DNA of 7,755 bases. It comes from a virus (taxonomy: Duplodnaviria > Heunggongvirae > Uroviricota > Caudoviricetes). A program made the position numbers and the translations under genes. A model generated the notes under the pieces. It was not told where the DNA came from. It searched no databases and saw nothing but the letters and a program-made list of their open reading frames with translations. Each line of letters starts with the position of its first letter. Position 1 is the first letter of the stretch. The stretch lies in the IMG/VR virus record IMGVR_UViG_2734482544_000001; one strand, given 5' to 3'. This document shows positions 3,550 to 3,933 of the stretch, piece by piece.

Positions 3550-3558
3550 TGGTGCCTA

Positions 3559-3933
3559 CCCCTCAATCATGATGAAACCCACCGCGCCGCCGTAGAGGCG
3601 CGACCATTTCAGCACGTCATTCAGCGCATCCCAGATTTGCAACTCATCCAGTTGTGATTCGAGAATGCCACGATCTTTTGCATCAATTTCCGAAGTGATG
3701 CGAATGCCTTTGCGGGTCATATCATCCGGGATAGCATCGACTGCTTCGCCGATGATCTAGGATGAACGATAGGACCATTCCACCAGCATGCGGTTACGAC
3801 TGGTGAAATTAGCCCGGTAGGTGGATGCTGAGTGCTGGTTAGGTGTCTGCATCCCTACGCGGGCAATAAAATTCTCATAACCATCAGCTGTGGCCTGCAC
3901 AGTTCGCCGCAGGGCTTGTTTGTTTCGTGCCAT
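3559..3933 (-). pseudogene. 5' portion of the portal reading frame, cut off from the main ORF by in-frame TAG codons at 3759-3757 and 3558-3556
   Basis: My own translation of the minus strand from the ATG at 3933-3931 gives MARNKQALRRTVQATADGYENFIARVGMQTPNQHSASTYRANFTSRNRMLVEWSYRSS, then TAG, then IIGEAVDAIPDDMTRKGIRITSEIDAKDRGILESQLDELQIWDALNDVLKWSRLYGGAVGFIMIEG, then TAG, then APMTPLRPETIG..., all in one frame. The start overlaps the large terminase stop as TGATG. Confidence 0.6.

Follow-up and report, generated by a model that had tools for sequence, protein, structure and literature searches.

The portal gene in the DNA analysed here is very probably a nonsense pseudogene that has become fixed in one bacterial lineage, as part of a cryptic prophage remnant in the chromosome of Shigella sonnei. 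The window, meaning the whole stretch of 7,755 nucleotides that was analysed (IMG/VR record IMGVR_UViG_2734482544_000001), holds this gene as a single long frame on its minus strand, interrupted only by two amber (TAG) codons. [quoted passage not shown] 2020, PMC7373316). The portal locus shares with that process the combination of nonsense mutations, IS insertions and IS-mediated deletions, all fixed in a lineage, and shows no difference in kind from it. This particular case of a prophage gene is apparently undescribed, and literature searches found no paper on this particular pseudogene.

The features of the window are listed below, with position 1 as its first nucleotide and with the basis of each call in brackets.

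1-83, no strand: IS1 end, the last 83 nt of the element (junction between 83 and 84, 4 nt into the major-capsid gene)
99-605, minus: cement or decoration protein gene, the last phage gene of the remnant (PF22758)
609-1829, minus: DUF2213 / Pa193_gp24-like head gene, intact (ORF list, relatives)
1833-2576, minus: Mu F-like head-morphogenesis gene, intact, overlapping the 3' end of the portal gene (PF04233)
2467-3933, minus: portal pseudogene, Phage_portal_3 / DUF1073, 488 codons with two ambers (translation, PF06381, 8hds, intact ortholog WP_000113499.1)
3010-3012, minus: codon 308, GCA (Ala) to GTA (Val), third of the portal substitutions specific to S. sonnei (C at window 3011 in all 80 relatives)
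3547-3549, minus: ATG (Met129), start of the 360-aa ORF, preceded by GAGGGG, a possible reinitiation site (sequence, ORF list)
3556-3558, minus: amber 2, codon 126, CAG (Gln) to TAG, C>T at window 3558 (comparison with relatives)
3757-3759, minus: amber 1, codon 59, TGG (Trp) to TAG, G>A at window 3758 (comparison with relatives)
3933-5336, minus: large terminase gene (terL), PBSX / Terminase_3, 467 aa, intact, its TGA stop overlapping the portal ATG (PF04466)
5287-6051, minus: terS-like gene in the small-terminase position, 254 aa, intact, ending in TAG (ORF list, relatives)
6246-6758, plus: DedA/VTT-domain membrane-protein gene, between the Rz/lysis and the terminase/packaging genes (relatives)
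7217-7515, no strand: run of 299 N masking 463 nt, comprising the 3' part of the lysozyme gene and the 5' part of Rz (S. sonnei chromosomes have the sequence)
7670-7755, no strand: end of IS2 (IS3 family), 86 nt, inside the class II holin gene (transposase ORFs of 121 and 301 aa lie between the holin fragment and lysozyme)

The portal frame occupies 489 codons from 3933 to 2467, beginning with ATG at 3933-3931 and ending with TGA at 2469-2467, and codons 59 and 126 are the only internal stops in its translation. The first lies in the context 'tcatcc tag atcatc' (3759-3757) and the second in 'gagggg tag gcacca' (3558-3556). Read through, the product starts MARNKQ and has a coding length of 488 codons. 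In the ORF list the same frame appears in three pieces of 58 aa (3757-3933), 54 aa (3556-3720) and 360 aa (2467-3549), with no frameshift between them. An initial reading made from the sequence only had described one continuous portal frame with two TAGs and no frameshift, and both the translation and the ORF list bear this out to the base; the TGATG overlap that it reported between the large-terminase stop and the portal start is likewise present, as 'cctgatggca'. A random run of 488 codons should contain roughly 23 stops, compared with the two seen, and a frame this open is far beyond what chance can produce.

The identity of the frame is equally clear. With the stops entered as X, the product matches the Pfam family Phage_portal_3 (PF06381, formerly DUF1073) with E=5.8e-104; the match extends over residues 55-402, so that both stops fall inside it, scores 348 bits against a cut-off of 33.8 and covers model positions 7-355 of 357. 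Among solved portals in the PDB, the read-through product is closest to that of Pam3 (8hds, E=2.2e-37), and it also matches portals 9jlf, 9l01, 8fvh and 9b41. Moreover, the gene sits where the family is expected, between the large terminase gene, which immediately precedes it, and the head-morphogenesis and scaffold genes that follow. Homologs have a full-length, uninterrupted ORF of ~480-490 aa; at this locus TAG stands at codons 59 and 126, and the locus is a pseudogene of the Phage_portal_3 family, not a working member.

Comparison with intact relatives gives the ancestral codons. The portal gene is matched by 382 complete Escherichia coli genomes, and in the best three, which are 99.8% identical, it is annotated as encoding an intact 488-aa 'DUF1073 domain-containing protein' (WP_000113499.1), which occupies the same gene position in E. 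coli FDAARGOS_944 and VL40. Aligned with FDAARGOS_944, the window shows 12 differences over 7,133 nt, and those in the portal gene are TGG (W59) to TAG, CAG (Q126) to TAG and GCA (A308) to GTA (V). The sequence-only reading had pointed to TGG and CAG as codons from which TAG can arise by a G:C>A:T transition, and these are exactly the changes found. Among relatives other than S. sonnei, codon 59 is TGG in all 79 that cover the site and codon 126 is CAG in 80 of 80, while 76 of the 79 full-length relatives in IMG/VR are intact with both codons and the remaining 3 are identical to S. sonnei. That reading had also proposed aligning homologous portals at the two stops. In such an alignment of 96 full-length, uninterrupted portals (470-500 aa, about 58-91% identical to the query), Trp is found at site 59 in 82 and Gln at site 126 in all 96, within the conserved flanks YRSS-W-[IL][IV]G and [IL]-x-G-Q, respectively. 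Homologs starting at the equivalent of the Met at 3549, which would have spoken against a single interrupted gene, were absent from this set, as 96 of 96 contain the N-terminal 128 residues.

The closest known elements are the E. coli prophages of FDAARGOS_944, FDAARGOS_943 and VL40 (WP_000113499.1), which share with the window the length of the portal gene, its overlap with the terL stop and its overlap with the Mu F-like gene. They differ in having TGG, CAG and Ala308 where the window has TAG, TAG and Val, and they keep the major-capsid, neck and tail genes and a tRNA array, whereas the window locus does not. Two isolated phages, Salmonella phage SEN34 (Brunovirus SEN34) and Escherichia phage vB_EcoM-606R2, show the same order of terS, terL, portal, head morphogenesis, DUF2213, cement and major capsid, and the portal gene of the window is 85% identical to the former and 98% identical to the latter at the nucleotide level. 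Unlike the window, which is a truncated chromosomal remnant, both have complete genomes and an uninterrupted 488-aa portal with W59 and Q126.

Outside the N-run at 7217-7515, the window matches S. sonnei chromosomes, among them HE616528.1, CP022457.1 and CP019689.1, with 100% identity, and an exact-sequence look-up places the 360-aa ORF in chromosome CP044191.1 as well. Codons 59, 126 and 308 read TAG, TAG and GTA in 24 of 24 S. sonnei-type loci examined. The 360-aa fragment occurs in 2,576 blocks of a public assembly collection and on at least 1,000 contigs, and look-up of the 54-aa fragment returned S. sonnei chromosomes only. The double amber is thus fixed in the S. sonnei genomes examined. 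Beyond that lineage, 61-mers containing one or other of the ambers have no exact counterpart in 5,426 complete E. coli genomes, where every match differs from them at one or more positions, and 30-mers with either amber are absent from 185,579 species-representative genomes (GTDB). In IMG/VR the two ambers are found together, in the same 4 contigs, and single-amber intermediates were found in none of IMG/VR, the GTDB species representatives or the complete E. coli genomes.

Three rare exact-sequence records of portal variants, found only in Logan (P0165, P0122 and P0181), touch on this point. The first, on 3 contigs, is a 125-aa N-terminal portal fragment that carries W59 and extends to codon 125. 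The other two, each on 1 contig, are a 417-aa piece beginning at Met72, with A308, and a complete 488-aa portal that has V308 and is free of ambers. These might be intermediates on the way to the S. sonnei allele, or they might be unrelated lesions.

The ambers are only part of the damage to this prophage. In S. sonnei the gene order runs from the Q antiterminator through one tRNA (CAT), IS elements, a holin split by IS2, lysozyme, Rz and the DedA-family gene to the terS-like gene, terL, the broken portal, the Mu F-like gene, DUF2213, cement and IS1. The final 23 nt of the holin gene occupy 7647-7669, beside the lysozyme start codon at 7647, with the end of IS2 following. At the other end, the IS1 junction reads ATGA followed by GGTGATGCTGCC, so that 4 nt of the major-capsid gene are present and the rest is gone from the locus. 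After the cement gene, the S. sonnei chromosome continues with IS1 (InsA/InsB), pgl, ybhD, another IS1, ybhJ and ybhC, of which pgl, ybhD, ybhJ and ybhC are chromosomal genes. No major-capsid, neck or tail genes are found at the S. sonnei locus, with tail genes missing from the surrounding 10 kb as well, and in intact relatives they lie directly downstream; everything past the cement gene has been removed or relocated by IS1. Weak evidence speaks against relocation of the capsid module to another place in S. sonnei: an exact look-up of the nearest relative's capsid protein gave only 485 contigs, and S. sonnei was not among the three source names displayed. With IS2 in the holin gene, further IS elements upstream and IS1 in the capsid gene, the locus carries the lesions of a cryptic prophage besides its ambers, and the element is incapable of forming phage. 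Even with TAG read through, no virion would be made, the holin being disrupted by IS2 and the capsid and tail genes being absent from the locus.

One further apparent lesion can be set aside. A 266-aa ORF at 6847-7647 gives the impression of a 164-bp deletion and a lysozyme-Rz fusion, and this is an artefact of the N-run at 7217-7515.

Two details of the layout may be added. The overlaps between the terS-like gene and terL (50 nt, 5287-5336) and between the portal and Mu F-like genes (110 nt, 2467-2576) are conserved in intact relatives. The DedA/VTT gene (WP_011069285.1 in relatives), encoded on the opposite strand, looks like a moron; it is conserved among the E. coli prophages closest to the window.

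Taken together, the evidence places in the window the lysis-to-head segment of a cryptic prophage that is SEN34/Brunovirus-like and has a late-control region of lambdoid type. Along the lineage leading to S. sonnei, spontaneous G:C>A:T transitions would have converted TGG (Trp59) and CAG (Gln126) to TAG, and fixation of both nonsense mutations would have left a pseudogene. Translation would stop after 58 residues and would at most restart to give fragments of 54 and 360 aa, which would be without the conserved N-terminal region of the portal domain. IS elements have disabled this prophage as well: IS2 lies in the holin, others lie between the Q antiterminator and the lysis genes, and IS1 has taken away everything from the fifth nucleotide of the major-capsid gene onward. 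This account builds on what can be read directly, namely which codons stand at the sites, that the ambers are missing in relatives and fixed in S. sonnei, and that IS elements have damaged the locus; we infer from these that the mutations represent neutral or near-neutral decay, and we infer likewise the order of events. The sequence-only reading had offered four explanations for the ambers without choosing among them. Decay of a defective prophage, one of the four, is strongly supported, and its description of that decay as early does not hold, as the decay is advanced.

The other three explanations fare less well. Sequencing or assembly error is a prior possibility for any such pair of stops, and the window does have a masked N-run elsewhere. 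However, the sequence is identical in all 24 S. sonnei-type loci, in 4 IMG/VR contigs and across the 2,576 collection blocks; recurrence of the double amber in 24 independently assembled loci, together with that of the 360-aa fragment in the collection, excludes the base-calling errors that had been suggested, and the chance that the two TAGs are errors is negligible. Almost as remote is the chance that the portal is functional, whether through amber suppression, through recoding of TAG or as a laboratory amber mutant. It is true that both stops are TAG in an otherwise perfect frame, and that intact relatives have a tRNA array downstream of the Q antiterminator. Nevertheless, no tRNA gene occurs in the window, no tRNA with a CUA anticodon occurs within 10 kb on either side (the only tRNA there has a CAT anticodon), and an IS interrupts the S. 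sonnei array behind the first tRNA. A suppressor within the prophage tRNA array was considered and rejected, as no CUA anticodon is present in the array; dependence on a suppressor tRNA, as once suggested, is left unsupported. Recoding is excluded by the use of TAG in the window itself. TGA is the stop codon of terL and the portal gene, TAA that of the remaining genes and TAG that of the terS-like gene and Rz, both of which are as long as their counterparts in intact relatives. The sequence-only reading was right to treat TAG as a genuine stop in these two genes and to consider genome-wide recoding unlikely, and in-frame TAGs occur only in the portal gene. Nor does the shared identity of the two stops call for a special cause: 28 of the 49 G:C>A:T nonsense routes in the portal gene (57%) lead to TAG, and two ambers are unremarkable for that reason. 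The likeness to classical amber (sus) mutants lies in an in-frame TAG, in an essential late gene, derived by G:C>A:T changes from TGG and CAG. The difference is that the window is no viable phage or laboratory construct: the ambers are chromosomal in natural isolates, with the sequence recurring in thousands of natural-isolate assemblies, and no suppressor is found locally. Instead of a complete and viable phage genome, the locus has an interrupted lysis cassette and no capsid, neck or tail genes. On these findings the earlier suggestion of a conditional-lethal amber mutant is rejected in favour of a pseudogene fixed in S. sonnei.

A near-identical and also non-functional copy of the portal gene exists in Shigella dysenteriae, where a 360-aa fragment (Q32EP4_SHIDS) is annotated from the same Met129. 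Unlike the S. sonnei allele, this copy is truncated by IS1 at about gene nt 308, with codon 126 still CAG and codon 308 still Ala. In the S. dysenteriae-type IMG/VR contig 2609459817_000001 (1-140), the IS1 end abuts portal nt about 308, and four extra missense changes are present. The matching 360-aa fragments from the same Met had raised the idea of an amber common to S. sonnei and S. dysenteriae, which is ruled out by the CAG at codon 126 in this contig. The CAG codon and the IS1 end at nt about 308 together indicate that the S. dysenteriae copy was inactivated independently.

The 12 differences between the window and FDAARGOS_944 were polarised against 83 relatives, which leaves only four S. 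sonnei-specific substitutions in 7,133 nt, at 6530, 3758, 3558 and 3011. Each is a G:C>A:T change, and two are nonsense. The one at 6530 is synonymous and lies in the DedA gene; the other three are in the portal gene. Under a uniform G:C>A:T model, the probability of at least two nonsense changes among four is 0.014 and that of at least three of four falling in the portal gene is 0.034, both values being nominal and post hoc with n=4, given that the portal gene was flagged in the first place for having two stops. Apart from the portal, the genes in the window are intact, and decay by point mutation is concentrated in this one gene. The clustering fits selection for loss of the portal slightly better than it fits pure drift.

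It is conceivable, then, that loss of the portal was adaptive, the protein being toxic or defence-triggering, or its loss being a first step in taming an inducible prophage. The defence protein Avs4, for example, recognises portal proteins. More broadly, one report names portal proteins as triggers of bacterial immune proteins (PMC13017515). The three portal substitutions out of four, the intact state of the neighbouring head and packaging genes and the separate IS1 inactivation in S. dysenteriae would all suit such a loss. Nevertheless, adaptive loss is unlikely. Apart from the post hoc statistics on four substitutions, a second nonsense mutation downstream of the first gains nothing, so that at most one of the two could have been selected; loss of the portal would leave prophage-induced lysis unstopped; and chance alone would lead one to expect the IS truncation in S. 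dysenteriae, whose genome has hundreds of IS1 copies. It is quite unlikely, for its part, that the clustering in the portal is other than chance, such that an ancestor of S. sonnei silenced the portal as a defence trigger or toxic product and the IS1 knock-out in S. dysenteriae is a parallel event. A different possibility is that the 360-aa ORF is translated by reinitiation from the ATG at 3549 and retained as a truncated protein with a residual or new function. The Shine-Dalgarno-like GAGGGG 8-9 nt upstream of that ATG, directly after the second amber, would be suited to such a restart, and the ORF is intact in all S. sonnei loci examined. Retention of this kind is highly improbable all the same. 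The fragment would be missing the first part of the Pfam portal domain, residues 55-128, which no full-length homolog lacks, and IS elements sever the late operon from the Q-dependent late promoter region. Moreover, with four substitutions in 7.1 kb, the intactness of the ORF is uninformative on constraint. Pseudogene decay remains by far the better account of the S. sonnei portal.

The practical consequence is for annotation. The ORFs of 58, 54 and 360 aa deposited as separate S. sonnei proteins are pieces of one dead portal gene, and the three fragments, which go by 'putative bacteriophage protein' or 'DUF1073 domain-containing protein', should be merged into one pseudogene. The 360-aa ORF, for example, stands in the database as 'putative bacteriophage protein [Shigella sonnei]' (Q3Z426_SHISS). 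Members of the portal family at large are named by NCBI and UniRef as 'DUF1073 domain-containing protein', 'phage portal protein' or 'anti-CBASS protein Acb1 family protein'. In view of the clear portal homology (8hds) and of the gene position, the Acb1 name seems to have been carried over misleadingly. In addition, the two ambers and A308V could serve as an S. sonnei-specific SNP signature, because they are found in every S. sonnei-type locus examined and the ambers are absent from the 5,426 complete E. coli genomes. More generally, when a phage late gene shows two ambers in an otherwise perfect frame, it is most likely a recent pseudogene in a host with relaxed selection, and recoding or suppression should not be read from such ambers unless the rest of the phage is intact. 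Beyond correct annotation, the importance of the case is small.

A last observation concerns the tRNA array of the intact relatives. The final slot of the array is occupied in one intact prophage by a tRNA-Gly(UCC) (L001, 154-228). In another prophage (L002, 545-616), the same scaffold carries the anticodon UAC, for which it is called tRNA-Val, together with a 1-nt deletion in the acceptor stem. This copy is either decaying or has had its anticodon switched.
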